Source: Schmidtea polychroa (Eukaryota). Taken from it: DNA of 64,000 bases. Of this stretch, positions 41,081-64,000 are shown in pieces (the stretch's first letter is position 1; each line of letters starts with the position of its first letter). The notes beneath the pieces were generated by a model. It was not told the origin of the DNA, made no database searches, and saw only the letters and a list, made by a program, of their open reading frames with translations. Where the stretch lies: positions 227,478,001 to 227,542,000 of the forward strand of contig CM097885.1 in assembly GCA_044892525.1 (NCBI GenBank), written 5' to 3'. The translations under genes and the position numbers were made by a program.

Positions 41081-42469
41081 CTACTCAGTCCTACTCTTAC
41101 CGTCTCGCCTCACCGCTATTTTTATGTATATGGTGTCGTTTTTCGTCATGTCTTCTACTTTCCGCTGTAGGATGAAGTTCGGTGCTCCGGTTGCTGATCC
41201 TTCTTCTTCCAAGGGCCTTTGGTAACATACGAGGTTTCCCGCTGTATGGAAACTCTGTTCATGTATACTTTGATAGTTCATCATTGCGAGGTCTATTTTT
41301 GCTTTGAATGGCCATTCTATTAACTCGTCGTATAGCCCTTTGCATATCAAGAAGAATACTGAGAAATGCGTTCCATATGCACTTCCATCCCCATTGGGGT
41401 ATGCTTTCATTTTCATTTTATACCCGTTTTTCCATGAGTAGAATGCTGGACTTAGTAATGTTGTATCCTTTCCATTTCTCGCTCTCTGCATCTTCTCTTT
41501 TACTCCCGTTATCTTCCATATGTATGGAGCCGTTGGTATTAATTCGTTGAGGTTTAATTCGCTTACTTTTTGATGTAGTTCTTTCACCATAATGTTGCTA
41601 GTTTCTACTAGATCTGTTTGTATCTTTGTGCTTGTTCTCGCCTCTTCGAATGCTTCCTTTTCTTCCAATAGTTCTTTTACCAACGCTTTTAGCGAGACTA
41701 TTTCTCTTTCTAAGTTTTCGGTTTTCCTTTCGTTTTCTTGTAATACCGTTGACCATATTTCCGCGTGTGTTGATACGTTTTCTGCTAGATGTTGGGGTAA
41801 TTCCCCTCGGTGTAATTGTTTCTGACATCCCCATTTTCCTAACACACACCTTATCTTTTTCCTTTCACATTCTTTCAGATGTTGAGCGAGTTTTATTACT
41901 CCGGGTTTATCGCATTTGTTGGGGCATTCTCCTCTGAATTCGGCGCACACTTTCTCCTCTTGTATGTTGTGATGTTGACTGATTAGTTTTTTCCAGGTGT
42001 CGGTTTCTCCGCAATACTCACATTTCTCCAGTCTTTCTTCGCATCGACTTTGATGTTCTGCTTCTTCATTGACTTTAATCTCTTCTTGGCAACGTTTGCA
42101 TTGACTGATTTTATATTCACATTGCTCCATATGTTGCCTCACTTCCCATATCACTCCTCGCCAATTACATGGGGTGTTTTTGCATCCTAGGTTTGCATTC
42201 ATCATATCTTTTACAGCTGCTTTATCTTCGTTTGTATCTCCCAAACTTGTTATCATTGTTTCTTTGCATACTGGGCACCATTGTGGTCCCTTCTTTATTA
42301 CCTCCTCTACACATTCTCTGCACATTCTGCATCCACATCGGGTTTGGTGAGGTTCTCTTAATAAGTTCTTGCATATTCCACACGTTACATGGTTGTGTAT
42401 TCGAATTGTGGTGGACTTTCTGACTTGTTCAACAATTTCTTTGAATTCTTCTCGTTGTCGCTTATCCAT
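41081..42469 (-). CDS. TRAF: Full-length TRAF-family protein (RING, TRAF zinc fingers, coiled coil, MATH), intronless, element-borne
   Basis: RING CGIC...CGCRMCREC...CPVC; zinc fingers CxxC...HxxxC; MATH YIWKI...LSPAFYS..NGYKM...YPNGDGS.YGTHFSVFF...WPF. Confidence 0.93.
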   Translation of the reverse strand: MDKRQREEFKEIVEQVRKSTTIRIHNHVTCGICKNLLREPHQTRCGCRMCRECVEEVIKKGPQWCPVCKETMITSLGDTNEDKAAVKDMMNANLGCKNTPCNWRGVIWEVRQHMEQCEYKISQCKRCQEEIKVNEEAEHQSRCEERLEKCEYCGETDTWKKLISQHHNIQEEKVCAEFRGECPNKCDKPGVIKLAQHLKECERKKIRCVLGKWGCQKQLHRGELPQHLAENVSTHAEIWSTVLQENERKTENLEREIVSLKALVKELLEEKEAFEEARTSTKIQTDLVETSNIMVKELHQKVSELNLNELIPTAPYIWKITGVKEKMQRARNGKDTTLLSPAFYSWKNGYKMKMKAYPNGDGSAYGTHFSVFFLICKGLYDELIEWPFKAKIDLAMMNYQSIHEQSFHTAGNLVCYQRPLEEEGSATGAPNFILQRKVEDMTKNDTIYIKIAVRRDGKSRTE

Positions 42470-42558
42470 TTCTATAATTATATATATACATATATTCGTT
42501 ACTGGTACAGTTTCGTATTTTTATTTACAGTTATTTACATTGCTATTTTAGGTTATAT

Positions 42559-43086: not shown

Positions 43087-46000
43087 CTATATACGTGAGC
43101 TTGGAGGGCGCTGAGCATTCCAGGCCTCCACCCACTGTTCCTGCTTGATATTACTTGGTCGTCTTATACGATGTTGAAAATTTCTTATTCTGGCCATTTC
43201 TAGTTCTCCGCGATGCCGCCTATCTTTGATTATTTTTATTGTCCCCCCGGTTATGATTAAAAAGGCCCCTGTTATTATTATGCCGCTGATCCACATCATC
43301 TGTTTTATGCTTATAATTTCCGCTTTTTCCTTGTTCGTTATTGTTGATATTGCTTCTGTGCTTTTTAGATTACCGTCTTTGCCATTTCCTTTCATCATTC
43401 CTCGTATTCTTGCTATTTCCTCGTTCATACCTTCCTTTGCCATTCTTTGTATTTTCTCCATCTCCTCCTCGGATACATAATTGTCTTGATATTTCTCATC
43501 GGTTTTCTTGCGTTTTCCTTGCTCATCTTTTTCGTCATTGATTTTTCTTTTCCTCCCTCTTTTCCCAGGGTACCGTCGACATTCTCTCGCTGTATCGTTT
43601 CTCCAGATGCATACTGTGTATTCTTTTGGAGGTTGTTGCTGTGTTACATATTGTAGACAGTCTTCACCCGGTCCTAATCTTGAAATGCAGACTTTGTGTT
43701 CTTTTCTTGGCTGGAGTTGCGTTATCACTACCTCACCTCCTTTTCTCAGGTGTACCTCCTTCCCTTTGACTTTAGTTATTCTCTTCCCGTCTCGATTCCG
43801 GTATGCTTCTTGTATTCTTACTTCCGTTATCGGTTCTGTATCTTCATTTATTAATACTAGTCTCCGATATGCTCTCGACATACATCTTCCTAGTATGCAC
43901 CTTTCTTTTAGATCCCATTCTTCTTTTAAATCCCATTGTTGCTCTCGTACTTGCTTCTTCTTTTCTTGCTTTAGTTCCTTCTCCTTGTTGTCTTTGTTTT
44001 CCGTTTCCTTGGCTTCTTTTATCGTTCCCATTCCACCGTGGGCTGTTATCATTTCTATCATTGTTAGTATGAGTATCATTACCATCATATTTGTTTCCAT
44101 TTCCTTGTTGGTAAAAAGTGGGCATACCCTCTGTTTCCCATTATTCGTCTTTTCCTCTTCCTTTGTTCGGCTTCCCGGTTTATTTTCCTCCTTTTTTATA
44201 CCTGAGTCGTTATTCCCTTGATTATTTTCCTCTGATTTCTCTTTCTCTCCATTCTCGTTTCGACCTTGTTCATTATTATCGTCGTCTTTATCGTCTTTAT
44301 CTCCCCCGCTATCGTTTGAAATGTCGTCCTCGACATTTATGTCGTTCAATAATCTGCGATATGCCGTTAACACTCTATTCCTTGCTAATTTTGCCTCGAA
44401 TTCAAACTCTTTTCTGCCTGTTGCTACATGTCTCTTTCTATTCCATTCTTTTACCAGTTCTCTCAATTGTGTACGGCGATGTTTTCCAATCCGCTTTTGT
44501 TCGTTTAGATTTTGCGTGAATTTGAGGTCTTCTCTGTTCAATACGATCATTATGATTTTCGGAGTTCCTCCTTTTGTTAGTGTATTTTTAACCATAGCAT
44601 TTTCTCCGTTTTCGTAGAACTCATTTATATTTATTGCATATTTATTGCTTTGCGGTATTTTCCATGTTAGCAATAACTTCATGGCTTCTAAGTTCATCCG
44701 TATCGTGTTCCATTGGAACTGTGACGTGTTTTTACAGATATTTTCTACCTCAGTTCTTGTAGCATTTTTACAAATGAATCTAATCATTTCCAAGTTTGGT
44801 TGTATGGTTGCCCAATCCATGGTAGAATTTCCTTCGTTTGATATTTCGTCCAGTCTTGATCCCGATCGATGTAGTATATGTAATGTTTTCGGGTGTATAT
44901 TTGTTATGGCTGCATACATTATTGCTGTTTCTCCTTGTTCATTTTTTGCATTAGATTCTTCTCCGAAGTCTCCAAGGATTCTTATGATGGTTATTGCTCT
45001 GTTTTCTTTTGCTGCTAAAATGGCTTGTTGTAATGGTGTTCTTGAGTCTTTTGTTGGTAAGGTGAATGCTAGTGGTATAAATGTTTTTATTTTTTCTATG
45101 TCTAGATTTGTGGTCTGGTCTCTTGCGTAGGTGTGTACTGTTTTTGTTATTTTTGCTAGTATCGCTTCATCGGATAGATCTTGCATTTCTTCAAAGAACA
45201 CCTCTTTGGCTTTGCGTATTATTATCTCCTGGTCTGAGTTTATTATCTTGGGTTTACTTGTTGTTGCTATCTCGGTTATTATTTGATCGACTTGCTCCTC
45301 AGACTCTCTTGTTTTTACTTTCTTTATTTTTATCTTTTTCTTGTTTGAACTGTTAATGCGTTCTTCCGCCGTAAGCACTTGAATAATACTTAGGTAGTTT
45401 TCTCGAATGTTGTTCATAGTTTCCATCATATATAATACACTCACGGTTTCCCAAAATTTTACTTGTACTTTATCGGAAAATTGAGATATAGCTTTTTCGA
45501 AGTTGGTAATTCGTTTTCTGATTAGTTGTTCGTCTTTGTGATTTGAAAATTTTATGCCACGTTGTAGTAGTTGATTTGGAATTTCGAATAGGTGATGTCC
45601 TCTCATCGCTTCCCTCATCAAGGTATTTTCTCCTTTGGTAAATGTTTCGTTTATATCTACCATATAATCGTTTTTGATCGGGTTCCTCCATGCAATTAGT
45701 ATTCCAGTAATTGTTATTAATTTCTCTTTGATTGCAGTTAATAACCCATCATACATGTTTCCTATCTCCCTATTATCCTCATATGATAATAGATCTATTA
45801 AGATTATGAAGGCTTCCGTACTTTTCCCTTCGATTGCATGATGTAGTGCATTTTTCTGGTTGTGGTCTTGTGTGGTTATCTTTGACCCAGTTTCAAGTAA
45901 TGCGATGATAATATCTTTAGCTTTATCCCGATTGGCTGCTATCATTAGTGGAGTGTAACCTTGGTTATTTTCTTGATCTGTTGAAACGTTACAATCGCGA

Positions 46001-49000
46001 AATGCTTCGATCGTTTCCAGTATTTGTTCATTATTCCCGACCTTTAAAAGTTTGTGCAGCGGTGTATCTCCATAATGGTCTGTGATCGTAAATAATATAG
46101 GCCATTGACTTTTTACTACCCTGAGTAATGGGTGTGTTCTTTCTCGGTTTGCATAATTTTCGATCATTGTTAGCAGACCTCCCAATATCTCAAAATCTAA
46201 TCTGTCTTCTGCCCATCCGGGCATTTTAGCTTTCACTTCCTTTATGATTTTCTCGGCTTCTGATGGTTGTATCCCCAACCGGTTACCTGTTGGTTCGTTT
46301 ATCTGCTGTAACATATTTATTCTATATGTTTGTGATCTTGTTGTTAATGTTCGCCCTTCCGGCTGGCTGGTGGCTGTTTTCGGTATTGGCTTACATCGTG
46401 CCACATTTACATATATTGGCCTTGTGAAGGGGTTGTTTACCAATCGTACTCTTACATTGGTTTCTCCGATGAATAGGATCTCATACGGACCTTTACCGTT
46501 TCGTTGTAATTTTTTGGTGGTTCCTGGAACTAATTCTGGTGTTTCGATCATCACCCAATCGCCTGTTTGAAACGTATGCTGTTTGACGTTTTTCTTTCTA
46601 TCATGTAGATCTTTGTAACTTTCTTGATAAAATTTTATATTCAATCCTGCAGTTTCCCAGATTTCCTGCATTCTTTCCTTGAACTTGGTTACATAATCGT
46701 CTATTTCCATATACTGTGATATTGGTGGCTGATACTCCAAATCCATTGGCATATTGCATTCTCTGCCGTACATCAACTTGAACGGACTCATCTTTGTGGA
46801 CGCGTGAATCGACATTCTGTAAGCCATTAAACATAATTTTATATACTCGTCCCAGTCGCGTTGATGACGATCGACATAATTTGATAACATTTGAATCAGT
46901 GTTCCATTGAATCTTTCTGTCATACCATTAGTTTGTGGATGGTACGGTGATGTTCTTAATTTTGCGATCTTGAAGTAGTTAGTGACTTCGCTCATTATTT
47001 CGCTCATGAAATTTGTTCCTTGGTCAGTTAATATCTGTTTTGGTGTTCCATATCGACAGCATATCTCCTCTACTAGTATTTTCGCGATTGTTCTTGCTTT
47101 CTGATCTGCCATTGCGAATGCTTCGGGGAATTTTGTCAAATAATCTGTGATTACCAATATATATATATTTCCTCTATCTGATTCTGGTAGTGGACCGACC
47201 ACGTCCATTGATATCATGGTCATTGGTTCTGCTGGTACTGGCATTGGCTTTAATGGTGCCTTCCATTTGGTTCCCGTGTTTTTTCTGGTTGCGCAAGTTA
47301 TGCAATTTTTCACCCATTCCGTTACATCCTCGGTCAATGTAGGCCAAAAATACTTTTGTTTCATTCGTGCCAACGTCTTTTTAGATGACATATGTCCTCC
47401 GAGTCTTCCGTCATGGTATTGTGTTAGCAGCTCTTTACGTCTATTCTCGGGGATGCACATCAGTCTTTTTTCTCCATCCATTATCAACAACCAGTCTTTC
47501 TCGATAATATATCGATGTCGATGTTTATCCATATGCTCCTTCAATTTTTGATCTTTCTCATATACCTCTGCTTTCCCTGTTTTCACATATTCAATGATTT
47601 GCTTCAACTCTGTATCCTCTTGCTGGTCTTTCCGTAATTGGCAAAAATCTAAATCTTCTGCTACCATCAGACATATTCGTTGCATTTCGTGATCTACTAA
47701 ATCTGGAAAGATAAATCTGGACATGCAATCCGCATTGGCATTCGCTCTTCCCGCTTTGAATTTTATGAACGGTGAATATTCTTGTAACTGCATTCCCCAT
47801 CGCATCAATCTACTTGAAGCTTCTTTGTGTTGGCCAAGCCATACTAGTGGTTGATGATCTGTTGTGATACATATTTCGTGTCCCCACAACAAATATCGAA
47901 AATGTTTAATCGCTTGTATAATTGCTAATGCTTCTCTCTCGGTTACGGAATAGTTTTTCTCATGCTTTTTAAACGTTCTACTGTAGTATCCAATCACTCT
48001 TTCTTTTCCCTCTTCATCCAGTTGTCCTAATATTGCTCCGGCTGCATATCCACTTGCATCTGTTGCTAATAAGAACGGTTTCTTGAAATCAGGATGTACC
48101 AGTATTGGAGCTTCAATTAATTTATCTCGCAATGTCTCAAATGCTTTTTGTTGTTCTGCACCCCAAATAAATGAAATATCCTTTTTCACTAAGTCCTGTA
48201 TTGGTTTCGCAATACCTGCATAGTTTTTAATGAATTTTCGATAATATCCGCATAATCCGAGAAATTCTTGAACTTGGGTGACAGTTTTTGGTGCTGGACA
48301 TGTTTTTATTTTTTCTATGTTTCTTGGATCTGGTTCTTTGCCTTTTGCTGACACTATGTGTCCTAAGAACGTAACCTTTTCTTTTGCCCAATCACATTTG
48401 GATGGTTTGAGTTTCAATTTCCATTGTCGTAATCGAACGAACACGTTTCTGATATCTTCCAAATGTTGTTCGAATGTTGCTGAATATATTAATAAATCAT
48501 CAATATATACCATACACTGCTTGATCCCATGTGTGACAAAATTCATACATCTCTGGAATGATGCTGGGGCATTGGTCAGTCCGAACGGCATTTTCCTGAA
48601 TTGGTATAGATCTCGGCCCAATGTGAATGCTGTTTTCTCTTTGTCTTCCTCTTTGACTTTGATCTGCCAATATCCGCTTTTCAGATCTAAAGATGTAAAA
48701 TATGCGGCCCCCTGTAACATAAGTAACATCTCATTGATGTCTGGTAACGGGTATGTGTCTCTTTTTGTTACTGCATTTAATTTCCGATAATCGATACAGA
48801 ATCTCTGAGTACCATCTTTTTTCTTCACCATGACTACGGGAAATTGCCATGGCGAACAACTTGGTTCGATCACTTGTGCATCTAGCATTTTTTGTACTTC
48901 TGCTTCGGCTATCTCTTTTTGCTTCTCTGCTAGTTTGTATGGACGTAGTGCGATTGGAGTTTCGTCTATTAATGGTATTGCGTGTAATGTAACATCGCAT

Positions 49001-52000
49001 GCTCCCAAATCTAAATCCGAAATTGCGAATATATCTTTATATTCTATCAATAATTGTTGAAGTCTTTCCTTTTCTTTTTCCGTTAGCAAGGTGCTGTCAA
49101 TTATCCATAATTCGTCAGCTTTCGTTGTTTCGTTGGTGATTTTTGGTAATTCGATGTCTATCATGGGTGTCAATCTACCCAATCTTTCATTTTCATATAT
49201 GATTTTATCTTCTTCCTCGAAATTTGTGATGTTGATTGGTATTTCCCCGTCTTCATTTATTGTTATTATTTCTCTTGCTAATGGTAATTCTCGTCGTTTT
49301 TCGAATGATTTGCTTGGCTCAAAAATGACTTCTCCTTCCATTCCTGCATCCACTTTTATTTGGCATATCATCTGTGATTTTGCTGGTACGATTATTTTCT
49401 CCGGACATCTAATTATTGCGTTCATCTTGCATATTCTACCCGCTTTGTCCTTTAGACACATTGTTGTTAAATCGATTACTACTTCCTTGAACAATTCTGG
49501 CATTAAATCCGTTCCGATTATACATGGTTCACTCAGTTTGGGTATCACCGCTAGATACGTTTCAATTTCGTTATCTTGATATCTTAACGTAGTCCACCAT
49601 CTTCCTACTACGTCTACGGTTTCTTTACTGCATGCGATGATATGGATAGTTGTTTGTTCGATGTCTTTCCAACATTTACTGGGTATTTGGTTGATTGCTA
49701 TTGCTGATACATTTGCTCCGGTATCTATCATTGCGCTTGTCTCTTTCCCGTTGATTTGGATCATGACTGTTACTGCCGCGCCTCCTGGTGAACTCATCAC
49801 TGCTATCGTTCTTACGTCATCCGCTTGGTCTACACTTTTCGTTCTTCGGGTCGGCATGTAGTTCATCCCTGGTTGACTTGGTAACTGTGGATACATATTT
49901 TGTGTCATGGTCAAAGCTGTTTGTTGTCCAACGATATCTGGTGGTATATAACTTCCGTTGGCTATCCAGGTATTTGTTTTTTCTTTCTCCCAATATGGCG
50001 CTGTTTCTATTGGCTTTTCATTCGGGTTTCCACTTGGATATGGGTATTTGTCATTCCCGTTGTCGCCATCATCGCTATCGCTGCTGTTTGACCGATTTCT
50101 AAATCTGTCCAAAAATTTTGGTTTGTTCTTTTTCAGTTGCGCTCTCGTTGCCTCATCATACATTGTTTTCCGAAATCGTCTGCCAACTTCTTCGTCGGTC
50201 CCTTTTATTTTTGTCAGTATTTTGATTAATCGTTTTATTCTGTGTATATCTTTAGAATGACCGTGTAACACCATTGTTTTTGCCAAAAATGGTAAAAAAC
50301 CTACTATCAACTTCCAATTTACTTTCTTTTCTCTCTTATAGATATCAAAACACGCCAACATTTGAGTCAATATTACTCTAACAATCTGGATAATTAAGAT
50401 GATTCCCAATATTCCTGCCATCATTTGACCGAACACTAGAAATCTTCCCCACATTGCTTTCATCATGTTTGACGTGGCTTGTTGAAAATGATCGGGTGAC
50501 AATAATAGTTCGTAATTGGGGCCTGACTGGAAATTCGTTCCCCCAGTTATGGTAACCATATTTGATAGAATGGATTCTCGCCTTGCTGGGAATAATACGT
50601 TTAATCGTGCCGTTTCTAAATCCTCTGGTGAGTACATACCAGCCTTTGACACATCAATTGGTTTGAAATCTTGCTCTGTTGCGAGTTCTATTAATCCAAA
50701 CTTTTTAGGTTCTTGTACTTCGGTTTTTACCGGTAACATTATCCATTTCCCATCGGGTTTTTCATATAACGGTCCATATGCATTTGAACAGTTAAAGGTG
50801 TTCGGATAAAATCCAATTGGGTTCATAATTCGAGTGACTGGTTGAACGAATCTGTTCCGCCCTTTGTAGCTAATTTCTAACTCGTTTGCACATTTCCCTG
50901 GTGGAATTGTGGGCTTTCTTGGCAGTCGCGCAAATGTCTTGGTACATGCATATGTATACATTACCTCTCCCACCATTCTACCAAAATGTCCATCCGGTAA
51001 CGGGAGTGATGGCATTGTGTTATCTGGGTGTGTTATTGCGATAGCTAATTTTGTTTTTAGTATCTCTTTATTCAATGAACAGTCATTTTGTATAAGATCG
51101 TAATACACTTTTTGCATTGTCGTTTGTCCTCGATGAAATAAAAAGTCCATTTTGTTATTAGCGTACAGGTACAATTTTACGTCCTCTGTTGCTACCTTTC
51201 CCACTGCTCGGTCTATTACTTGCCTTGACATGTAGATACCTGCGTAGTTCGTCCGATATACTATGCTGTCACATTTGGTGGTCTCTTTTTCTCTAATGAA
51301 TCTCATGCCGATGTCCGGATCATCTGTAATTAATGCCGTTGGTGTTTTTTGGGTTGTGAGTCTCTTTTCTTTGGGGGATGGCGGGACTGGTTTCCCATTT
51401 CGCATCCTTACGTTCCCATTCTCTTCATCGTCATCCTCGTTTTCGTAAATTTCTCCTTTTACTTCATTGAATAGAGCACTTTTTAACAATTGCAGTCGGC
51501 ATTTTTGGGTGTTAGCTTCATATATTATAGTCGAAATTCCCGTTCTACACACGTTTTCCGTAGCTCTGCATGCTGGGTTGGTTTTCATTTGATAGTTGTT
51601 TGCGTCGAATTGTGCTTCGTATTCCTTCAACTCCACTGTGTAGGACTCAATTACTACTACTCCCGAGATCACTTCTCCTCTGATCGTATATGTGCCTCCG
51701 TTACATGATCCATCAGTTGATTTTACTCGTCCGGCTACATAGATACTTTCCGTCTTGATCATTCCGCTTTGTCCGTGTATGGTTACTCCATCCCTGATTC
51801 TCATCGCTCCGGTTCTAAAAAGTTCTTTACAGTCTTCCCGTTGTATAGGTACTATTTCTTTATCTAATCCCGGTAATATAAGGGTTGAATATGAGTATTG
51901 TCCACAGTAGTATGCCAACACTTTCTTCGATACTACGCATTCTCTAGCTTGCGTTCTAATGAAATCTGATTCTTGGTATACGTGATAGGAGACTTTCTTT

Positions 52001-55000
52001 TTTACTATATCTAATTTATTCGGAGATGCCTGTCTACATTCCTCTATATCTCTCAGGGAGTATCTTTCTCCTATTATTGAATTGTCACAGTCGTAAATAG
52101 TAAATCCCGCGGCTCCACTGGTGCAGAGCATCCATATCATCATGGTCATCATTAGTGAATTAATCGACACTTTTCTGCTGGCTGGGTCTTTCAATGGTAA
52201 TTCCCATTCCAGCTCGTTTAGCAATTTCTTCAACCGAATTTGCATTGATCTCTCTTGCTCGTTTTTTCGTGGCGCTTGTATGAGTCTTTTCCACCCACCG
52301 GCGCGAATAATATGTGGTTCGATTGTATTTTCAATGATTGTAACGGTCATTTCTACATGATTTGCGAATTGTTTGTTAGGTATTTTCCTTGCTGCTAATC
52401 CCATCAAATTGTACATTAGATACGTTAATACTACTAAATGATGTTCGTCGTCGTTTGCGTTTAAAGTTAATTGTTCAATTACTCTTCTTGTCTCTTCCCA
52501 ATCGGTTTTAGTGGTTTTTGTCTTCTCTTTGATTAATTTCGGAATTATTCCGGATATTGTATTCCATAGTTGTCTGGCATCTACGCTTGCTACTTTTCGT
52601 TGCCATAACCGTCGCAATTGTGGGTTCGTTATTATTAGCATATCTTTTACTAGCTCTCGTATCCATTTTTCGCCTCTCTCGATTGTTGGTTGAGCTTCTT
52701 TTAAGTCCCACACTATTTTATCCAGTTTCTCTAATCTGACTTGTCCTTGTTCTTGTTTCAGTTGTTCTCTAGTTTTGAATTCTGGTTTTTCTCCTTGCTT
52801 CCTAGGTCTTCCTTTTGCCCGTTTTTCCATCATTGTTCCGGCTTCTCTTGTCGTTTCATACTTCGGGTTTCTCTCATTATCTGTTCTGGGCAATGAGCTA
52901 TCGTTGTTTCTCAGCCATTCGTTCCATTCGTCTATTATTTTGTCTGTTTGACCTTCTGGTGTTGCTTTCGTTGGTCCTTTCTGTCGTTGGAATTGTTCGT
53001 CGGTTTCGGTTTCTGTTGTATTATCGATAATTTCCTCTATGTTCAGTTTATGTGGTTGTTGATAGCTAGTTGATGGTTGGCTCGTTGTCCATATTTCGGC
53101 TCCTGTCGGCCATCTTACCAGAATTGGTGATCTTTCTCCCGCTCCTTCATCGCTGTCTTCCAATATAATTTCCTCGATTTCCTCGGTTTCATTCGATTTA
53201 CTCGCTACTTTGTTAGGGCTTGGTGTACTCAAGCTACCTTTCGTAGGTTTACTGGATTTGCTCTTCCTTTTAATCGGTTTTCCCAATGTTTCTGCCATTG
53301 TCAATACATTGATCTCCCCCAATCTCATGGGTGTTATTCCGACATCTGCATTATCATCCAACGATTTTCCGAATAGTTGTAGGTGAAATGGAGTTTCGTA
53401 TGCTAATTTCTTTTTTAACTCTCTGATCTTTGTTGTTGGATGTACTTCTATATCCTCAATGCTTTTGTCGGGATACTTGACTCGGATACGATACCTTTCC
53501 TGGGTATCTTGTGCCCATTCTTGGTTTCTCCATTTCCTAATAATTTGTTCTAGCTGTTCTGGGTACCATTCGTTATATTGTCGGTATTCCTCAATCGCTT
53601 TCGCCATTTCTCTTAGATTGTGGATATTCTCTGATGTCTTTAGGATGATGTTAGCCAATGCTATTACTTGACGTTTTTGATTTTTTGCTCCCGTTGCTAA
53701 GATATCACCTAATTGTTTATATCTTTCCTTCTCTTCTCGTTCTCTCGCTTCTTTTGCCTCTTCCCCGTCTATGTCGGCGTATTCGCGTTCCTTCTTTCTC
53801 ATCGCATGAATATGCCTGGTTTCCGTTTCACTTTCTGACGTAACATCCGTTTCGCTTTCGTCGTCCGATGTCGATTTTATTTCGTCCTCTTCGTATTTTG
53901 GAGGTTCATCTTCCTCTTCTTCTGATTCGCTTTCTATCTCACCAATGTCTGTTTCCACGAAAATCCCTTTCCTGATTTCCCATTCTTTGTTTTCCGCATT
54001 CCACATCCTTTCCCATGGGGTTCGTCTGCAGGATCTGGTACTCAGTTTCTTTAATTTTCCTTGAAGCTCTTTTTCTTTTAGCCACTGTTGATGAATTTCA
54101 ATTATCTCTACTGATTTTTGATATAGCGTTTTCATCCTGTCTCGTATTTCTTTCTGGTATGTTACATCTCTTGTTCGGAATTCGTCCATGGGCAATATTC
54201 TGATGATTTGATGATTATCCCACATTCCCATTTCGCTTAGCGAGGTGTCGTCTTCGGCCCGTAATATTATTTTATCGTACATCATGACTACATCATCTAT
54301 CATCCCGTCGCTACTCTCGCTTCGTACTTTTTCCGTTATCTCTTGGTTTATCTTGGTTACTAAGTCGTCCACCGTACTCTGATTACTCATCTTTATTCGT
54401 CGTTTCTCCTCATTTGGTAACCATATGGTTATTTCTAATTTCTGCGGTTGCGTTTCTTTTAATCTTCCGTATTTGTGGATCAAATTTATGGTTCTCCAAT
54501 CGCTCATCCTGAGCAGTTCTGTATCTCGCAGTCGGCTCATTAGTTTATGCATGTCTGCAGTTCGTCTTGTTATGAGCAAATCCCAGTTATCTTCAACTTG
54601 TTCTTGGATTTGTTTGATTAATTTATCTAGATTTCGTCGCAAGGTGTATTGTTTTATTTGTTCCAGCTTCAGCTTGATGTTAAAGTCATACTCGGCCTTG
54701 GCGTCTTTAGCCCATTCGTGAATATTCGCTGGTTGCTTCTCTTTATGCAATTTCAATATTTGAGTTTCTCCTGGCCAGATCAATGCATCTATTAGGTGCA
54801 TGTCTGGTTTGATTTGTTCTCCTTGATATTGATACAGGTATTCTTTCTTTCTCGAGCTGCCCAAATGTTCTCTTATCCAATCGAAAAGATCGTCTGTAAC
54901 TGCATTTTTTATCCATATTCTCTCGAGTCCTTTGCTCGTTCCGATTTTTATTACATAGCGTGTTGTCTCCGCTTGTTTCATTTTTTCCATATACTTCTTT

Positions 55001-56961
55001 ATTATCGCTTTTTCCTCGTTTGGTATTAGATCTTTTTCGTTTCTTTCTAGTTTCATTATCCTTTGTGTGAAGCGTCTGTATGGTATGATGTCAATGAATT
55101 CCTGGTTTCTTACCACCACTGGAAGTATTTCCTTTACTTGTTTTATCGCTTCTTCTCTTTCTTTTCTCAATTTCATTTCGATATTCTCGTCTTCGCTTTC
55201 GCTTGTCACGTTGCTTTCACTTTCATCCTCATCTGCTCCGATCTTTTCTCTTAGTTGGTCGATATTTTCATTTAACTGTAACATTTCTCCACCAAGGCTA
55301 CTCACATAATCCTCATCGTCATCTGTTGACAACACCTTCTTTGTTGTCCTCATCATATTAATTCGTAAATTTCTCATTCTTGGTACTTTCTTTAATTTTT
55401 TGTTCTCGAGTATCGTTAGCTCCTCTGAGTCTAATCCTCGTATCATATCATGATTTAGATGATTAATCTGTTTTTCATTTTCGTTATTTTCCGCTTCTGC
55501 TTCTGTTTTTGTTTTTTCATTTTCTCTTTCGATTTTATCTTTTATCTTTTTCCAAAATATTTTCTGAATTCTCTGATTTCCTTTTAGCGATGTTGTTGAA
55601 TTTTCCTTTTTTGCTGCTGGAATTGTTTCTTTCGGTTTCTCTGGTTCGCTCATAGGTACAACTCTTGGATTTTTACCGTAATTGTAACAATATTGCTCTT
55701 TTATCTCCCTTGCCATTCTCATCATATTTATTCGTAATGGTTGTTCTTGTCGCTGCTGGATTCGCTCTCTTTTTATCCTCTCTTCTTCAGCTTGTAGTCT
55801 TTGCCATTCTTGTGCATGTTGTTGTACTTCATAGTTGTTAAGATTCTCGGTGCTCCTCATCATGCGTATATTCTGGGTTTGTTGTGGTACTTGCTCTTGT
55901 CTCGGTCTCATCATTTGTTGCATCATCTGCTTCATTTGTGAAATTTCTTGCATCACATTCATTTGCTTTCCCTCACTAGGATTACTTTGTCGTTGCGGAT
56001 TTGGTGCATAGTTATTATTTCGCTGTGGTGGTCGTTGTTGTTGGCTCCTTTCTCGACAGTCTCTTGAGATATGACCTAGTTGACCGCAGTTAAAACATCC
56101 TCTTAATTGGCATATATTTTCCGTGTGTCCTCGTCGTCCACACCTATTGCAATTTGCGTTTCGGTAACAATCTCTATCCCAATGTCCTGGTTTACCGCAT
56201 GTTCGGCATTGTTTGTTATCGTTCGTGTTTCGTCGATTATTAAAATTATTCCCATTGTTCGGGTTGTTGCGTTCACTGTTATTCCCATTTGATCGTCCTT
56301 GCGGTGGTTTGAAAATTTGATGCGCACCGGGTATAAACTGATTCATTTTTGGTTCATGATTGCTGTTCTCTCCATTTTCAGTTTTTACCGTTGCAGTTGC
56401 GATTCTTCCTTCCTCTTGCATGACATTCATTTGTGCCGGGAGGTGGAGTTCGCATCTCGTGGCCCAATCTATGGCTTCCTCTAGTGTTTTACACATTTGA
56501 CATCCCACCGAGGCCCTTACCTCTTCTCGGCGCAGTCCTTCTATGAAATAACCAATTAAATTTTCCTCCGGCAAGTTTCCGTTCATGGCCTTCTTTGCCA
56601 ATCTTCGCAATTCACTCGCATACAACGTTATGGATTCATTTGCTCTTTGTTTTCTACTCGCTAATTCTCCTAGGGCTTGATTTATTGGTTTGCTGGCTCC
56701 GAATGTTTTTCTCAAAAATGTTTTGATGCTTTCCCAATTGTCTAACTTCGTATTTCTTTCTTTTGCTTCTAGATACACTTCTAATGCGCTATCACATAAA
56801 AACAACGGCATCCGTTTGCTAATTGCTTCTGATGTCCATCCACACACATCGATATAGACTTCAAAATTTGTTATGAACGTTGCCAACTTGTTCGCATTCC
56901 CGTTGAATGGTTCGCCTCTAAATTTTTCTTTATATTCGTCGGTTTTTACCACATTCGTCAT
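43087..56961 (-). CDS. gag-pol: 4624-aa Gag-Env-Pol polyprotein with extra Ubl-like, Bcl-2-like, ankyrin and membrane segments
   Basis: Capsid-like N-terminus; 3 CCHC knuckles 56054-56208; protease DTG 49717-49725; RT YIDD 48496-48507; RNase H TDAS ~48055; integrase HHCC ~47300-47420 and D,D35E (47203, 47023, 46915) with GPY; glycoprotein 50270-52104; ankyrins 44570-46100. No stops or frameshifts. Confidence 0.97.
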   Translation of the reverse strand: MTNVVKTDEYKEKFRGEPFNGNANKLATFITNFEVYIDVCGWTSEAISKRMPLFLCDSALEVYLEAKERNTKLDNWESIKTFLRKTFGASKPINQALGELASRKQRANESITLYASELRRLAKKAMNGNLPEENLIGYFIEGLRREEVRASVGCQMCKTLEEAIDWATRCELHLPAQMNVMQEEGRIATATVKTENGENSNHEPKMNQFIPGAHQIFKPPQGRSNGNNSERNNPNNGNNFNNRRNTNDNKQCRTCGKPGHWDRDCYRNANCNRCGRRGHTENICQLRGCFNCGQLGHISRDCRERSQQQRPPQRNNNYAPNPQRQSNPSEGKQMNVMQEISQMKQMMQQMMRPRQEQVPQQTQNIRMMRSTENLNNYEVQQHAQEWQRLQAEEERIKRERIQQRQEQPLRINMMRMAREIKEQYCYNYGKNPRVVPMSEPEKPKETIPAAKKENSTTSLKGNQRIQKIFWKKIKDKIERENEKTKTEAEAENNENEKQINHLNHDMIRGLDSEELTILENKKLKKVPRMRNLRINMMRTTKKVLSTDDDEDYVSSLGGEMLQLNENIDQLREKIGADEDESESNVTSESEDENIEMKLRKEREEAIKQVKEILPVVVRNQEFIDIIPYRRFTQRIMKLERNEKDLIPNEEKAIIKKYMEKMKQAETTRYVIKIGTSKGLERIWIKNAVTDDLFDWIREHLGSSRKKEYLYQYQGEQIKPDMHLIDALIWPGETQILKLHKEKQPANIHEWAKDAKAEYDFNIKLKLEQIKQYTLRRNLDKLIKQIQEQVEDNWDLLITRRTADMHKLMSRLRDTELLRMSDWRTINLIHKYGRLKETQPQKLEITIWLPNEEKRRIKMSNQSTVDDLVTKINQEITEKVRSESSDGMIDDVVMMYDKIILRAEDDTSLSEMGMWDNHQIIRILPMDEFRTRDVTYQKEIRDRMKTLYQKSVEIIEIHQQWLKEKELQGKLKKLSTRSCRRTPWERMWNAENKEWEIRKGIFVETDIGEIESESEEEEDEPPKYEEDEIKSTSDDESETDVTSESETETRHIHAMRKKEREYADIDGEEAKEAREREEKERYKQLGDILATGAKNQKRQVIALANIILKTSENIHNLREMAKAIEEYRQYNEWYPEQLEQIIRKWRNQEWAQDTQERYRIRVKYPDKSIEDIEVHPTTKIRELKKKLAYETPFHLQLFGKSLDDNADVGITPMRLGEINVLTMAETLGKPIKRKSKSSKPTKGSLSTPSPNKVASKSNETEEIEEIILEDSDEGAGERSPILVRWPTGAEIWTTSQPSTSYQQPHKLNIEEIIDNTTETETDEQFQRQKGPTKATPEGQTDKIIDEWNEWLRNNDSSLPRTDNERNPKYETTREAGTMMEKRAKGRPRKQGEKPEFKTREQLKQEQGQVRLEKLDKIVWDLKEAQPTIERGEKWIRELVKDMLIITNPQLRRLWQRKVASVDARQLWNTISGIIPKLIKEKTKTTKTDWEETRRVIEQLTLNANDDEHHLVVLTYLMYNLMGLAARKIPNKQFANHVEMTVTIIENTIEPHIIRAGGWKRLIQAPRKNEQERSMQIRLKKLLNELEWELPLKDPASRKVSINSLMMTMMIWMLCTSGAAGFTIYDCDNSIIGERYSLRDIEECRQASPNKLDIVKKKVSYHVYQESDFIRTQARECVVSKKVLAYYCGQYSYSTLILPGLDKEIVPIQREDCKELFRTGAMRIRDGVTIHGQSGMIKTESIYVAGRVKSTDGSCNGGTYTIRGEVISGVVVIESYTVELKEYEAQFDANNYQMKTNPACRATENVCRTGISTIIYEANTQKCRLQLLKSALFNEVKGEIYENEDDDEENGNVRMRNGKPVPPSPKEKRLTTQKTPTALITDDPDIGMRFIREKETTKCDSIVYRTNYAGIYMSRQVIDRAVGKVATEDVKLYLYANNKMDFLFHRGQTTMQKVYYDLIQNDCSLNKEILKTKLAIAITHPDNTMPSLPLPDGHFGRMVGEVMYTYACTKTFARLPRKPTIPPGKCANELEISYKGRNRFVQPVTRIMNPIGFYPNTFNCSNAYGPLYEKPDGKWIMLPVKTEVQEPKKFGLIELATEQDFKPIDVSKAGMYSPEDLETARLNVLFPARRESILSNMVTITGGTNFQSGPNYELLLSPDHFQQATSNMMKAMWGRFLVFGQMMAGILGIILIIQIVRVILTQMLACFDIYKREKKVNWKLIVGFLPFLAKTMVLHGHSKDIHRIKRLIKILTKIKGTDEEVGRRFRKTMYDEATRAQLKKNKPKFLDRFRNRSNSSDSDDGDNGNDKYPYPSGNPNEKPIETAPYWEKEKTNTWIANGSYIPPDIVGQQTALTMTQNMYPQLPSQPGMNYMPTRRTKSVDQADDVRTIAVMSSPGGAAVTVMIQINGKETSAMIDTGANVSAIAINQIPSKCWKDIEQTTIHIIACSKETVDVVGRWWTTLRYQDNEIETYLAVIPKLSEPCIIGTDLMPELFKEVVIDLTTMCLKDKAGRICKMNAIIRCPEKIIVPAKSQMICQIKVDAGMEGEVIFEPSKSFEKRRELPLAREIITINEDGEIPINITNFEEEDKIIYENERLGRLTPMIDIELPKITNETTKADELWIIDSTLLTEKEKERLQQLLIEYKDIFAISDLDLGACDVTLHAIPLIDETPIALRPYKLAEKQKEIAEAEVQKMLDAQVIEPSCSPWQFPVVMVKKKDGTQRFCIDYRKLNAVTKRDTYPLPDINEMLLMLQGAAYFTSLDLKSGYWQIKVKEEDKEKTAFTLGRDLYQFRKMPFGLTNAPASFQRCMNFVTHGIKQCMVYIDDLLIYSATFEQHLEDIRNVFVRLRQWKLKLKPSKCDWAKEKVTFLGHIVSAKGKEPDPRNIEKIKTCPAPKTVTQVQEFLGLCGYYRKFIKNYAGIAKPIQDLVKKDISFIWGAEQQKAFETLRDKLIEAPILVHPDFKKPFLLATDASGYAAGAILGQLDEEGKERVIGYYSRTFKKHEKNYSVTEREALAIIQAIKHFRYLLWGHEICITTDHQPLVWLGQHKEASSRLMRWGMQLQEYSPFIKFKAGRANANADCMSRFIFPDLVDHEMQRICLMVAEDLDFCQLRKDQQEDTELKQIIEYVKTGKAEVYEKDQKLKEHMDKHRHRYIIEKDWLLIMDGEKRLMCIPENRRKELLTQYHDGRLGGHMSSKKTLARMKQKYFWPTLTEDVTEWVKNCITCATRKNTGTKWKAPLKPMPVPAEPMTMISMDVVGPLPESDRGNIYILVITDYLTKFPEAFAMADQKARTIAKILVEEICCRYGTPKQILTDQGTNFMSEIMSEVTNYFKIAKLRTSPYHPQTNGMTERFNGTLIQMLSNYVDRHQRDWDEYIKLCLMAYRMSIHASTKMSPFKLMYGRECNMPMDLEYQPPISQYMEIDDYVTKFKERMQEIWETAGLNIKFYQESYKDLHDRKKNVKQHTFQTGDWVMIETPELVPGTTKKLQRNGKGPYEILFIGETNVRVRLVNNPFTRPIYVNVARCKPIPKTATSQPEGRTLTTRSQTYRINMLQQINEPTGNRLGIQPSEAEKIIKEVKAKMPGWAEDRLDFEILGGLLTMIENYANRERTHPLLRVVKSQWPILFTITDHYGDTPLHKLLKVGNNEQILETIEAFRDCNVSTDQENNQGYTPLMIAANRDKAKDIIIALLETGSKITTQDHNQKNALHHAIEGKSTEAFIILIDLLSYEDNREIGNMYDGLLTAIKEKLITITGILIAWRNPIKNDYMVDINETFTKGENTLMREAMRGHHLFEIPNQLLQRGIKFSNHKDEQLIRKRITNFEKAISQFSDKVQVKFWETVSVLYMMETMNNIRENYLSIIQVLTAEERINSSNKKKIKIKKVKTRESEEQVDQIITEIATTSKPKIINSDQEIIIRKAKEVFFEEMQDLSDEAILAKITKTVHTYARDQTTNLDIEKIKTFIPLAFTLPTKDSRTPLQQAILAAKENRAITIIRILGDFGEESNAKNEQGETAIMYAAITNIHPKTLHILHRSGSRLDEISNEGNSTMDWATIQPNLEMIRFICKNATRTEVENICKNTSQFQWNTIRMNLEAMKLLLTWKIPQSNKYAININEFYENGENAMVKNTLTKGGTPKIIMIVLNREDLKFTQNLNEQKRIGKHRRTQLRELVKEWNRKRHVATGRKEFEFEAKLARNRVLTAYRRLLNDINVEDDISNDSGGDKDDKDDDNNEQGRNENGEKEKSEENNQGNNDSGIKKEENKPGSRTKEEEKTNNGKQRVCPLFTNKEMETNMMVMILILTMIEMITAHGGMGTIKEAKETENKDNKEKELKQEKKKQVREQQWDLKEEWDLKERCILGRCMSRAYRRLVLINEDTEPITEVRIQEAYRNRDGKRITKVKGKEVHLRKGGEVVITQLQPRKEHKVCISRLGPGEDCLQYVTQQQPPKEYTVCIWRNDTARECRRYPGKRGRKRKINDEKDEQGKRKKTDEKYQDNYVSEEEMEKIQRMAKEGMNEEIARIRGMMKGNGKDGNLKSTEAISTITNKEKAEIISIKQMMWISGIIITGAFLIITGGTIKIIKDRRHRGELEMARIRNFQHRIRRPSNIKQEQWVEAWNAQRPPSSRI
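50270..52165 (-). other. Class III fusion-glycoprotein-like domain (chuvirus/Jingchuvirales-type) inside the polyprotein
   Basis: Internal signal-like INSLMMTMMIWMLCTSGAAG|FTIYDC; Cys pattern YDC...EEC...ECVVSKKVLAYYCG...DCKE...DGSCNGG; TM GILGIILIIQIVRVIL. Confidence 0.8.
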
Positions 56962-57326
56962 GATTGGTTCTTGAAACTCGATTATTCCTTTTAAATTTTC
57001 CAGCGATGTAGCTAAACTATGGACGGATAATTCTTCTGTTGACCCGGTTAGGTTGTTTGTTATATCGGATAGGCTTTCTCTACTTCTAGATCGACTGGGC
57101 GTATGTCCGGCTGTGGGGTTTTCTTGATCGTATATCGGTGTTTTGTGGGGTCTTTTTGCTCCTTGTGATATTCCTCTCTGCTGCCTAAATGATCGTCCTC
57201 TTTTGAGTTGATCTAATTCGTCTCCTGAAAATAATACGTCTCCTGGCTTACTTGAAGATCTAAGGTTGGGTTTATCCGTGATTCTTTCTTACTCTTTTCT
57301 GTCTTTTCACGTGGATTTTTCTACGG

Positions 57327-59327: not shown

Positions 59328-59807
59328 CTAACTGAAGTAAATCGTGTGCTTCTCCTTTATCACACATACACATAAAGAACAATGCGTTAAACTGACGGCA
59401 CATTCGTCACAATGGCTAAGGTGTCCACACGGTAGAATTAGAATTTTGGCAGGTCGCGTCTTACAAATGTTACAGGTTCTTAAGACCGCTGCTTTCTCTA
59501 CTATCGATGTTCGTATTCTTTGAGACAAAGTTTTTACTTGTTCGCGTATTCTCACATATTCGATGTTCAGAGCGGGGTCGTCGAGTCGTTGCTGCATCCA
59601 TTGGTAATGGGTAGACAAGTCGGTATCGGTGTTTGTTGCTCCCAGTTTATTGGTTAAATAATTTTGTTTTGATATCAGAGGTGCATCGTGGCGTTGTTGT
59701 TCTAGGGTCTCTATTTGTTGCAGTTTTTCTCTTAACGTCTTTAGGGAATCGTTTTCTATGTCGATGAATCTGCTTAATTGTTGTAGATGTTTTCTAGCTT
59801 CCGACAT
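59328..59807 (-). CDS. IAP-type C-terminal RING E3-ligase-like protein (159 aa, no BIR), in the leader
   Basis: CNICKTRPAKILILPCGHLSHCDECAVSLTHCSLC...IYFS* matches the XIAP/cIAP RING spacing and C-terminal aromatic tail; acceptor TTTTTTTAG|AT ATG. Confidence 0.85.
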   Translation of the reverse strand: MSEARKHLQQLSRFIDIENDSLKTLREKLQQIETLEQQRHDAPLISKQNYLTNKLGATNTDTDLSTHYQWMQQRLDDPALNIEYVRIREQVKTLSQRIRTSIVEKAAVLRTCNICKTRPAKILILPCGHLSHCDECAVSLTHCSLCVCVIKEKHTIYFS

Positions 59808-60278
59808 ATCTAAAAAAAATGTGTTGTTATTATTTGTTTTGCGGGTATTATTAATAATATTGTCAGGTTGGTATTTAATTTTCGTTTGACTTTTATTGTT
59901 AATGTTTCTAACTTTTGTATTTTATTCCATCCTTGGGATTCCCTCGTCATATTTTTCACTTTAATCATTTACTTTTATTATCATTACTTCCTTTCATCCC
60001 TCTTTTTAATTTAATAAATTAGACTAAACAAAATAAGTGATTCCCGTTTTCTTTTCTCACCGCACTCTTTCACATTCATTCAACCTTATTTTCATTCAAA
60101 CTCGTTTAGGTTCGTTTTTATTCATACATACTCTCTTTCAAACTCAGACAGTTCGTATCATTTCATTGCACTATAATTCGTTTCAGCCCCGATTCCATTT
60201 TTATCATAATTAATTAAATTGTTAATCTAACACATCATAACACAAAAATAGACAATCAAACAAATCAATATATGATAA

Positions 60279-60296: not shown

Positions 60297-60303
60297 AAAA
60301 TCA

Positions 60304-63300
60304 TGTTGGGCGTATATGGGAGAAGTCAAACGGACATTCGTAGTGCCGCTGGCATCATGTTCCTTTAGCTCGGGCCATTCCCCCACATAACCCGCATGAT
60401 TTACAAATATTCCCTCATGTGAGCCCGTGATGATCTACCCACGTTGGTGCTGCTCACACGGGTCGGAGTTGATCCGCAGGTGAGCCCCTGCCTTAGGACT
60501 ACTACGGACCCACTCTCAGTTCAGGTTCCCCGGTGCCTAAGAAGGTCTTACCCATACTCGTCATGCATTCTTGGTACGACCCTGGTCCAAGGGGACGACC
60601 CACATTCTCCAATGGTCATTCCAATTCATTTATCCAGTCATAACTCATCACTCTATAACTTTTACGGGACAACACAACGAATACTATGATTATATTAATG
60701 AAATTGAGGATACATATAAACACAAATTGCAGAATCACAACACGTAGGAGAGTACAAACATGCATCATCCAAGTCATTTATAAAGATTGTTGAGCTTGAT
60801 CGCGTCGGATGAGAGATGGGTCAACGACATGTCCAATTATGGGAAAACTTCCCCTTCGGCGATCATCTCGTCGATGTCGACCGGTAACCGACGGTCTCGC
60901 ACGAGCTGGACCCCTTCGGGCGAGATCACCCGGAATATCTCCTTTGTGGGGGTAGAGGGTATTGACGATAACTTCTCCAGAGAAGACTTGGCCACAGATA
61001 ACGACGCCTCAAGAGCCGCGATTGCATCTCGGCGTCTTTGATTTTTGGCGGCTCGGGTCGGCCGTTTTCTTTTACGCTGTGGTTGATGGTTGTCCGCATC
61101 GGGTGCTGTAACTGATGTCACTAAAACTGGAGCCAAGATAGGGGCGGATGGACCATCCACCGGCGGCTGACAACTATATAAGGCCGGTGCTGGAACAGGC
61201 GGCAGATAGGAGCCGTGCCCCAGACAACTGGTTGTAGCGGTGGAAGTACTTTGGTGGTGAGTTGGAAAAACATTACTGGCCTCCAAGACGGGAAATTCTC
61301 GTACCCGTTTGGCCAATTCTGCCTCCGTGTAGACCTTGTGGAGGGCTTCCGATTGCGCCTTGATCGTCAGTCTTTGACAGCGACTCTCCTCTAGGAGGCT
61401 GTCCCGGCAATGTTCCAACCGAAGAATTTTACTGCGCTCCTCCTTCATCTGTGGCGGGGAGAACCACGTGCCTTCATAGAGATCAATTCTCTTTTTCAGT
61501 GCCCCGATATATAAGTGGAGTTGTGCTATGACTGCGTTTTTATCTGCGCAGGAGAAGCATGGACGAAGATCCTTGTTCGTAGCGGTTGAAGCAGGCATCT
61601 AAAGATCAAGACGTTTTGTTATTCGTGGAGTGTAAAAAAAAAATTGCATTGGAGGGTCGTTTCCAAATTTTTGACTACGAGTTTTACCCTATTTTCAATC
61701 ATACTACTCGACAATGACCCACCTACCCATGGCGCTGGTCAACATTCACACTCATTTGTCTGCAAGCATCCATACTGATAGAGAAAAAGAAAACGGAATT
61801 CCTCGAAATAATACATTTATCATAACTTTGACTTTATGTTTGTCTTTCTGAAATTGGCCATTTTTATTTAATGTGTTTTTATTAATTTACCACAGTCGAA
61901 TTTATTATAAGTATCCTTCCCTAGTAATAGCATTCCCACTCCCCGCACTACTATATTCATGAAATTACGCGCGAGTTGTGTCGTAAAAACCTAGTTCGGT
62001 ATGACTGGTGACTATGGGTGTTTTAAACATCGTGATCGGCTTCATAGAAAAAGAACCGCAAAAATTTAATTTCAATCTCATTATAATTTGCTGTTTGATC
62101 AGCTTAAATCTTGCGCCATAAATGTCGTCATGACGACGCTTGTTTGTGAATAGTGGTGTATTAGTTTCACTCTGGATGTAGGCTAGCAGATGTCGTCAGG
62201 TCTGTTCGTATGTATGCATTGTATGATTTATTGTCAGCCTGTGTTTGTGGACTAGGTAGAAATTCTACTATTCAGTATGACGTAATCTCGCTGTCGGGTT
62301 GGACATGTAGTCTAATCATCTCTTATTTTACCGGTACGCAATTGTGAGATAAATTTATCTACTATCTGCACACTAGACATGACATTGCTGGCTGATTTTC
62401 CAGATAGGTTGGAGTCTGAGAGAGTGTCACAGAAATCACATGAATCTAATTGTGTGGGTTAAATTGCGAATCTACTAGATAAGATTGATTTTATATTTAG
62501 ATTTTTCTCTACTAATTGGTTTTGAGATAAAAACTGTCGACTCGTTTGCTCGTGACTGAGGCTTCAGATGTCTTATCAATCGATTTCCCGGCAGTCTCCT
62601 ACACTCACTCGATGTTGTTGGCGACCGTTTCTTTCGGACTCATAGCCAGTGTTTAAATCTACTATCTGGAGATGTTCACTCATCTCTAAAACGGCTATTA
62701 TCGATGACAGCGACTAGTTGTCGGTTGGTGATTAAGTTTCCCCGGAGTCGACGATAAGCAAGACGATGGATCTATTCGCTAACCTACTGGCGGTGTAGAT
62801 TCTAAGGCATCTTCAGATTGCAAGATACGAAATGGGCTTAATACAGAGAATTTCTCGTAAAAACTCGAAATTAATAACTCCTTCCGGTGGACATTCTAAC
62901 AGTCACTTTTCTCAATGCAAGACGAATATGGCTCAAACTCCAAGATTATTTAATTACGTGATTGGACACAATGCTGATGATAGTTTTAATGGTATATCTC
63001 CTGGAGTTCCCAAGGTATCGTTGATTCAAACTATGTCACTCAGAAGTTTCTGCAATGGGTGATTTTCGACAACTAAGATGGTTGGGTTTCACTCGATGAA
63101 AGAAAGCATTTACTTGATTTGTTAAATCTCACATGGTTTCCTCGCTCCTCACACCCCACCCAAGGCAGTACGCATCTCTGCCCACTGCTCTTGGACCGGT
63201 GTAAAGGACGACTCGACCCGTCTCATCGCAACTCCATTCTCAATAAATGTGCAATAATACAATTTAATTATTCAATAAATCAATATAGAAATAATGGAAT

Positions 63301-64000
63301 TATGAGGAAATCAATTAAATAAATGTTCACCTGGCGACCACGACATTTGGATTCCGGGCATGATGACTCTGGTTAATATAAATCTCTCATTCATTAAGTA
63401 ATCACTTTAGTTTCTAAATTCATATGGATCTTGGGCTGGTTCTATCACTTCAATTTCCTGAGTTCATATTCGTAAATGTCCTCTCCGTAGGACGTTCGAA
63501 AAATCCAACTACATCATACCCGGACTCCAGAGGACGTCGTCGCCAGCATCATAGAGAGAAAGCAACACCTTCGTTTAAAATATGAAATTTATTGGATTAT
63601 AAACGTCTTGTTAAATTCATAATAAATATTTAAATCATCATACTAAAATCTAAAAACATAATTTACCAAAAATCTCCGAAGGTGTTAGATCAAAGTAATA
63701 TAAGTTTTCTTTAGATAGACTCGTTCGGCTTAACTGAATTCGATCTCCGGTAAAAGTATACGTTATCCGATGTATGAATATGGTTCAATAATCTGTGCTC
63801 GTGAGTGGTTCCTAGTTTTCCTGTAGAGTTTCGGGTTAGAATGATTATATAAAGGATAAAATTTTACCTGTAGAGTTTCGGGTTAGAATGATACTCTACA
63901 GATTTTTGTCGCTCTTTATATATTACTTTTCGTCCAATCAGGACGCGACTTGCATGTAATATTATTATTTATTATGATTTTTATGTTTTTTAATGTAATC
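60304..64000 (-). repeat. 5' LTR (truncated by the window edge)
   Basis: Matches 33925-37621 with no indel; no substitution noticed by eye. Confidence 0.97.
60837..61598 (-). CDS. LTR-encoded protein, copy D', in the 5' LTR (253 aa)
   Basis: Translation identical to 34458-35219. Confidence 0.85.
   Translation of the reverse strand: MPASTATNKDLRPCFSCADKNAVIAQLHLYIGALKKRIDLYEGTWFSPPQMKEERSKILRLEHCRDSLLEESRCQRLTIKAQSEALHKVYTEAELAKRVREFPVLEASNVFPTHHQSTSTATTSCLGHGSYLPPVPAPALYSCQPPVDGPSAPILAPVLVTSVTAPDADNHQPQRKRKRPTRAAKNQRRRDAIAALEASLSVAKSSLEKLSSIPSTPTKEIFRVISPEGVQLVRDRRLPVDIDEMIAEGEVFP

Follow-up and report, generated by a model that had tools for sequence, protein, structure and literature searches.

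The polyprotein of a giant Ty3/gypsy retroelement in the planarian Schmidtea polychroa contains, immediately ahead of its envelope glycoprotein (Env), a helical domain that is very probably of Bcl-2 ancestry. The element lies in the 64,000-nucleotide stretch of DNA analysed here (hereafter the window) and is of the Burro type, as matched by published layout and not by sequence to a named Burro. BCL2-like cargo and its pre-Env position are already known for Burro elements; what is added here is that, as aligned below, the Trp-Gly of the BH1 motif is lost in all five families compared, with its Arg retained in none.

The element spans 30.5 kb between TG...CA ends, is flanked by a 4-nt target-site duplication (ATAC), and carries two 4,122-nt LTRs with 0 mismatches between them (minus strand; 3′ LTR at 33925..38046, 5′ LTR at 60304..64000 and continuing 425 nt beyond the window end). 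A minus-strand frame of 4,733 codons from stop to stop (43087..57288, first Met at 56961) encodes a Gag-Env-Pol polyprotein and contains the Bcl-2-like segment. The Pfam order along this frame was Gag with CCHC knuckles (core plus three knuckles at 56053..56808, sequence inspection contributing), a Monjiviricetes-type fusion glycoprotein with a C-terminal transmembrane segment, which is Env and lies in frame between Gag and Pol (50335..52104; PF24664, E = 4e-72), aspartic protease (49492..49767), reverse transcriptase and RNase H (47776..48828), integrase with zinc finger and core (46936..47454), and an ankyrin-repeat region (44899..46080, limits approximate), all on the minus strand. A ubiquitin-like segment was weakly matched at 53383..53487 (E = 0.023), and Pfam further identified two accessory minus-strand ORFs, one TRAF-like with a RING, a Cys/His-rich middle and a MATH domain (41081..42520), the other a C3HC4 RING ORF upstream of gag (59328..59921). 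There was no BIR match in the polyprotein and the other ORFs scanned, and no Pfam match at E ≤ 1 for a dUTPase-like region. The family of the window's element is young and abundant; in a genome search all 150 copies scored, of 840 candidates, were 93-100% identical to the window's domain, 50 of them (the window copy included) being identical and 4 containing a stop.

Several further features of the element were noted. The end of the polyprotein (window 43090-44160) carries another signal-like segment together with a Cys-containing domain and a transmembrane segment, a layout shared by the polyprotein end of a second family (family B, L061:8950-9834); this C-terminal part gave no informative Pfam match and is likely a second surface protein. 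Each LTR contains a 253-codon ORF (window 34458-35219 and 60837-61598) with no Pfam match, and the stretch separating the TRAF-like gene from the 3′ LTR (window 38278-40919) contains three further accessory ORFs, two of them charged and coiled-coil-like (363 and 251 codons) and one (217 codons) having stretches that look like signal and transmembrane segments. Ahead of gag, the leader that follows the 5′ LTR includes a 72-nt tandem repeat of 4.6 copies with 98% matches (window 58344-58675). A tRNA primer-binding site was not obvious in window 60274-60303 after the 5′ LTR (no TGG start), and a clear polypurine tract was not seen before the 3′ LTR; the supplement of PMC13524379 lists the tRNA type as "none" for two related elements. 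Contigs of sequencing runs, whose RNA nature is a guess, cover the polyprotein frame.

Profile, alignment and model evidence place the Bcl-2-like helical domain at 52270..52749 on the minus strand (aa 1514-1673 of the frame), with the best-supported core at aa ~1596-1672, equivalent to helices 4-8. A first-pass annotation had put it at 52276..52700, which was the right location, although the domain begins upstream of 52700, at about 52750. The motifs named in that annotation lie where it had placed them on the minus strand, namely VIEQL at aa 1603 (52482), HHLVVLTYL at aa 1616 (52443) and the BH2-like GGW at 52291..52299 (aa 1664-1666). GGW occurs once in the entire 4,733-aa frame and is kept in 11/11 aligned rows, these rows having been cut at GGW; in the BH2 pattern W-x(5)-GGW, the first Trp, 8 residues ahead of that of GGW, is present in the other four families and replaced by His in this one. 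The BH1-equivalent position (52441..52452, minus strand) reads DDEH (aa 1613-1616) in place of NWGR, according to the family-based alignment and a comparison with Bcl-xL. The annotation had called BH1 degenerate, correctly as to the absence of NWGR but with a register one residue off. Just upstream of the domain lies an AT-hook-like GRPRK (52798..52812, minus strand), and a GRP[RK] motif is present in families B and E too. Downstream, hydropathy indicates an internal signal-peptide-like segment of Env (52105..52176, minus strand) composed of basic, hydrophobic and small residues, a candidate tail anchor with a putative cleavage site. Its hydrophobicity peak (aa 1707-1721) falls 43-47 residues past GGW depending on the averaging window used, in agreement with the roughly 40 aa first claimed, and a hydrophobic segment starts 27-55 residues after GGW in 6/6 sequences from the five families.

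Taken by itself, the window's copy gave low scores. In a Pfam scan of a 168-aa segment, Bcl-2 (PF00452) was the sole family at E ≤ 1, but the match (15.7 bits, E = 0.022) was under the curated cut-off of 31.4 bits. Against a profile built on 9 non-Burro Bcl-2 sequences of this genome, the copy reached 11.1 bits (best shuffle 9.2), a value that fell to 3.6 bits when the domain was scored inside the entire polyprotein. A phmmer search of the single domain against the PDB returned 0 matches at E ≤ 10, and homolog searches found one relative among 6,113 candidates (P0002), 0 among 2,977 and 0 among 1,428. The sole match in a representative-library search, a repetitive prealbumin-fold protein, was judged spurious, and an Atlas search was uninformative, its best score of 0.80 going to unnamed phage clusters.

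The comparison was extended to four further families, B (L061, with a 3,053-codon frame), C (L081), D (L084) and E (P0002), obtained through genome searches with PF00452 and PF24664 and a protein-database search; the window's family is A. The Env proteins of families B-E shared 31-38% identity with that of the window, and in each of these families a helical domain closed with a GGW that lay 48-76 residues ahead of a conserved YDC near the Env start. Pfam Bcl-2 matched at the same pre-Env position in all five families, with E values of 0.022 in A, 2.2e-6 and 8.4e-7 in B, 0.0016 and 0.0089 in C, 7.3e-6 in D and 0.055 in E (the last of 5 matches in a whole-protein scan). The matches of B-E were below the cut-off in those scans (28.6-29.9 bits for family B), and two family-B copies reached 32.2 and 33.3 bits in the genome search. 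A leave-one-out profile of families B-E (6 rows) scored the window's domain at 29.4 bits, the best stretch of the polyprotein, a value reached by 0/2,000 shuffled sequences (1,970 scored, best 11.9); the cutting of segments at GGW favoured these profile tests. The non-Burro Bcl-2 profile scored B, D and E at 24-30 bits, C at 17-19 and A at 11-13 (best shuffle 9.2), and family A, with the lowest score, is therefore the most diverged of the five. In a profile-profile comparison, Burro against 7 non-Burro Bcl-2 sequences of the same genome gave a probability of 94.8 (E = 4.9e-8). A Burro-only profile searched against 177,635 PDB sequences placed Bcl-xL first (E = 7.6e-4, covering the helix 4-8 region), and among the best 60 of 153 matches at E ≤ 10, all 60 were Bcl-xL or Bcl-2. 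A genome-wide BIR search (150 scored of 309 candidates) also revealed many dispersed 392-393-codon ORFs, such as that at C3:89659468; two of these were examined over 4 stretches, where neither Env nor a Bcl-2-like domain was matched and one had distant reverse transcriptase/integrase, so that the BIR search added no sixth family.

Structure prediction pointed the same way. AlphaFold, run on an 11-row Burro-only alignment, predicted eight helices with a mean pLDDT of 59.9, about 70 in the core and mostly <50 over the first 42 residues; a single-sequence model (pLDDT 49.6) had no significant fold match. Foldseek against the PDB, the check that the first-pass annotation had suggested, returned Bcl-2-family proteins in all 40 rows listed, but at E 0.09-0.43 and TM 0.38-0.48 for a model of middling confidence; the top viral row was the lancelet adintovirus Bcl2 (E = 0.054). 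VIA-align ranked Bcl-xL, Bak and iridovirus GIV66 first (Z 8.1-8.2, 105-123 residues aligned; GIV66 at rank 3 with Z 8.1, rmsd 2.8 and 105 aligned), and 13 of its top 15 rows, including all 3 with Z ≥ 8, were Bcl-2 proteins matched over residues 16-160. The tool sets its caution level for helical bundles above 8.2, and Z values of 8.0 and 7.9 went to designed helical proteins. Structural alignments with cellular Bcl-xL, Bcl-2 and Bak showed 10-15% identity. The fold scores of the predicted model are singly below significance, and their weight lies in their agreement with the sequence evidence. Pfam, the family profiles, the PDB profile search and the model searches together support the Bcl-2 ancestry and fold first claimed for the domain.

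The presence of such a domain in an LTR retrotransposon is not new, contrary to the first-pass annotation, which knew of no precedent. Citing Grohme 2018, PMC6431247 describes a BCL2-like motif in Burro-2, -3 and -4 with a ubiquitin/SUMO-like motif before it, places Env between BCL2 and protease, and gives planarian Burro elements as >30 kb with a polyprotein of 4,873 aa. The window's element resembles Burro/GYPSM1 (Grohme 2018 and Jurka 2007, via PMC6431247) in its length of about 30 kb, long LTRs and one polyprotein, here of 4,733 aa versus 4,873 and 5,140 aa. Common to both are a Gag with three CCHC knuckles, a ubiquitin-like segment (weak here), the BCL2-like domain, an in-frame Env, protease, RT, RNase H, integrase, and ankyrin, TRAF/MATH and RING cargo, whereas two points differ: the window's polyprotein gave no BIR match, and its element has the TRAF-like gene as an ORF of its own, downstream of the polyprotein, while the Burro elements of PMC6431247 have it in frame or in an upstream ORF. 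Section 7 of that article, on Burro, is silent on BH1 loss and on the signal as an anchor. In the GAG-ENV-POL errantiviruses of Platyhelminthes with an HSV/gB-type Env (PMC13524379), Env likewise separates Gag from Pol, with a signal peptide on one side and a transmembrane segment on the other; "BCL" has 0 occurrences in the main text and 7 supplementary files of that article. The accessible portions of PMC8532177 and PMC11410931 hold nothing further on the Burro Bcl-2-like domain, and no functional test of the Burro BCL2 motif was found in the literature searched, where only PMC6431247 surfaced; Grohme 2018 and Lee 2026 may cover more.

Cellular Bcl-xL, Bcl-2 and Bak (PF00452) share with the domain a helical bundle (predicted here), the BH2-like GGW, a hydrophobic central helix and a downstream hydrophobic segment; they differ in that NWGR is absent here, the domain is embedded in a polyprotein, and its candidate anchor is the Env signal. 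Viral Bcl-2 proteins (GIV66, KSHV Bcl-2, adintovirus Bcl2, M11L, A52 and B14) are comparable as captured Bcl-2 folds in virus-like elements, but they are stand-alone genes of DNA viruses, whereas here the fold is a domain of a retroelement polyprotein. In a tree of 17 rows, with 3 near-duplicate rows dropped, the 8 Burro rows fell on one side with a support of 79/89, a grouping neither shown nor rejected (branch not starred), and a long branch led to family A. The Burro rows adjoined the Bcl-2 of a Maverick-like element (L076) and a related gene (L042) with a support of 80/86, also not starred. The Burro domain and the Bcl-2 genes carried by Maverick/adintovirus-like elements of this genome may have a common origin.

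Other Bcl-2 genes of this genome were observed as well. Maverick/adintovirus-like elements carry multi-copy stand-alone Bcl-2 genes (L076, L077 and L046-L060), and adintovirus Bcl2 homologs are published (PMC8502044). At L077 the Bcl-2 gene is apparently intron-containing and lies near a Pox_A32-like ATPase. The Bcl-2 ORF at L076:6878-7333 (G000:C1 near 15.4 Mb; Pfam 32.6 bits) lies near a 1,389-aa ORF whose only Pfam match was Endonuclease_7 and which has what we take to be family B polymerase-like motifs. A canonical Bcl-2 gene of the NWGR type is present in seven near-identical copies, grouped in two clusters at G000:C4 89.9-90.8 Mb (L031-L037).

The equivalents of NWGR were DDEH in family A, NRDK in B, DRDV in C (YRDV in one copy), DKEV in D and SRNK in E, so that the BH1 Trp-Gly is gone in 5/5 families and the Arg is replaced by His, Lys, Val, Val and Lys, respectively. 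In Bcl-xL, Arg139 forms a salt bridge with the BH3 Asp and is called conserved across all pro-survival proteins (PMC6540150), and the triple mutant G138E/R139L/I140N loses Bax binding (PMC5348979). Loss of Trp-Gly together with replacement of Arg makes canonical BH3 binding doubtful, and capture of BH3 in the canonical manner by the Burro domain is unlikely as predicted from these residues. M11L and ORFV125, both poxviral, bind pro-apoptotic proteins although their sequences show no evident similarity to Bcl-2 (PMC7823800). A search of 3 flanking stretches with a single motif pattern revealed no BH3-like exon of the two Bak-like host genes.

Against 6 copies, dN/dS of the domain was 0.01-0.05 where dS was measurable (its N-terminal half was saturated in three), similar to the values for Gag, Env and protease. 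Spacer regions were also low (0.05-0.09, with one value of 0.29), and selection therefore does not set the Bcl-2-like domain apart. The domain is maintained as a protein, and purifying selection says nothing on its purpose.

We tentatively favour, at somewhat short of an even chance, the explanation that the domain is a membrane-tethered, viral-type survival factor of non-canonical kind that keeps the host cell alive during element replication. An ancestor would have captured the Bcl-2 domain once, before the five families split, a single capture being likely because the pre-Env position is shared. Hydropathy would place Gag and the cargo through the Bcl-2-like domain in the cytosol; the basic-hydrophobic-small segment (aa 1705-1728) would send Env into the ER, and the transmembrane segment near aa 2293-2307 would bring Pol back to the cytosol. 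Signal peptidase would cut before the Env N-terminus and leave the hydrophobic stub as a C-terminal tail, while the element's protease may free the domain from Gag. The cleaved domain would then face the cytosol at the ER with the stub acting like a tail anchor; alternatively, the stub might be trimmed further. It is plausible from the sequence that the Env signal doubles as the C-terminal anchor of the domain. A signal-derived anchor is expected in the ER and not in mitochondria, which counts against the survival role. With the BH1 Trp-Gly-Arg replaced, any binding of a host pro-apoptotic protein would need a non-canonical mode. We nevertheless give the survival role this standing because the IAP cargo of a related element reportedly shields stem cells from apoptosis mediated by caspases (PMC13465017, citing Lee 2026).

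The possibility that the resemblance is fortuitous, a helical spacer with a GGW and no Bcl-2 descent, draws on the window's copy alone falling under every curated threshold, on its single-sequence model without a significant fold match and on an Atlas search with nothing above 0.80; it is largely refuted and very improbable, given the independent Pfam matches at the same position in four other families (down to E = 8.4e-7), the family profiles, PDB profile search, profile-profile comparison, Foldseek and VIA that all favour Bcl-2, and the BCL2-like motif already annotated in print. If the ancestry is accepted, the fold could have given up BH3 binding and taken on a scaffolding role in signalling, like vaccinia A52/B14; together with the TRAF-like, RING, ankyrin and ubiquitin-like cargo that the element carries, it would then dampen immune or stress signalling of the host. 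The loss of BH1 Trp-Gly throughout the families is consistent with such a scaffold, as are the TRAF-like ORF, RING ORF and ankyrin repeats that the element encodes and the precedent of A52 and B14, which share the fold, are without a groove and inhibit NF-kB (PMC2494871). However, the family B polyprotein keeps the domain yet lacks an ankyrin match, and the fold searches place cellular and herpes/iridoviral Bcl-2 first, with A52/B14 absent among the matches listed, and we regard this role as unlikely.

We judge similarly improbable a present-day structural role for the domain, in which a helical bundle would bind the membrane and, together with the cut or uncut Env signal, hold the Gag precursor at the membrane where Env resides, much as a matrix protein does. 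The domain's fixed place directly before the Env signal in all five families, despite Gag-proximal cargo that varies in length and content, and a constraint similar to that of Gag, Env and protease would fit such a tether, but the fixed position is equally explained by the need for an anchor under the survival role, and the BH2-like GGW and BH1-like turn kept in all families suggest a retained Bcl-2 surface. Other explanations share a small residual probability. That the BH3-binding signature was lost before the families radiated and the domain works outside apoptosis, as a scaffold or as a Gag-Env tether anchored by the Env signal, is a somewhat doubtful reading; if true, it would make the domain a retroelement parallel of poxviral A52/B14.

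With motif and position in print, the finding has no discovery value as such; its value lies in the functional question and in the family-wide BH1 loss, which sharpens the test of Burro Bcl-2 function. Planarian genomes contain Burro elements in abundance, and one of the domains these carry, IAP, reportedly aids stem-cell survival and regeneration; whether the Burro Bcl-2 cargo acts like the IAP cargo or took another job is directly testable.
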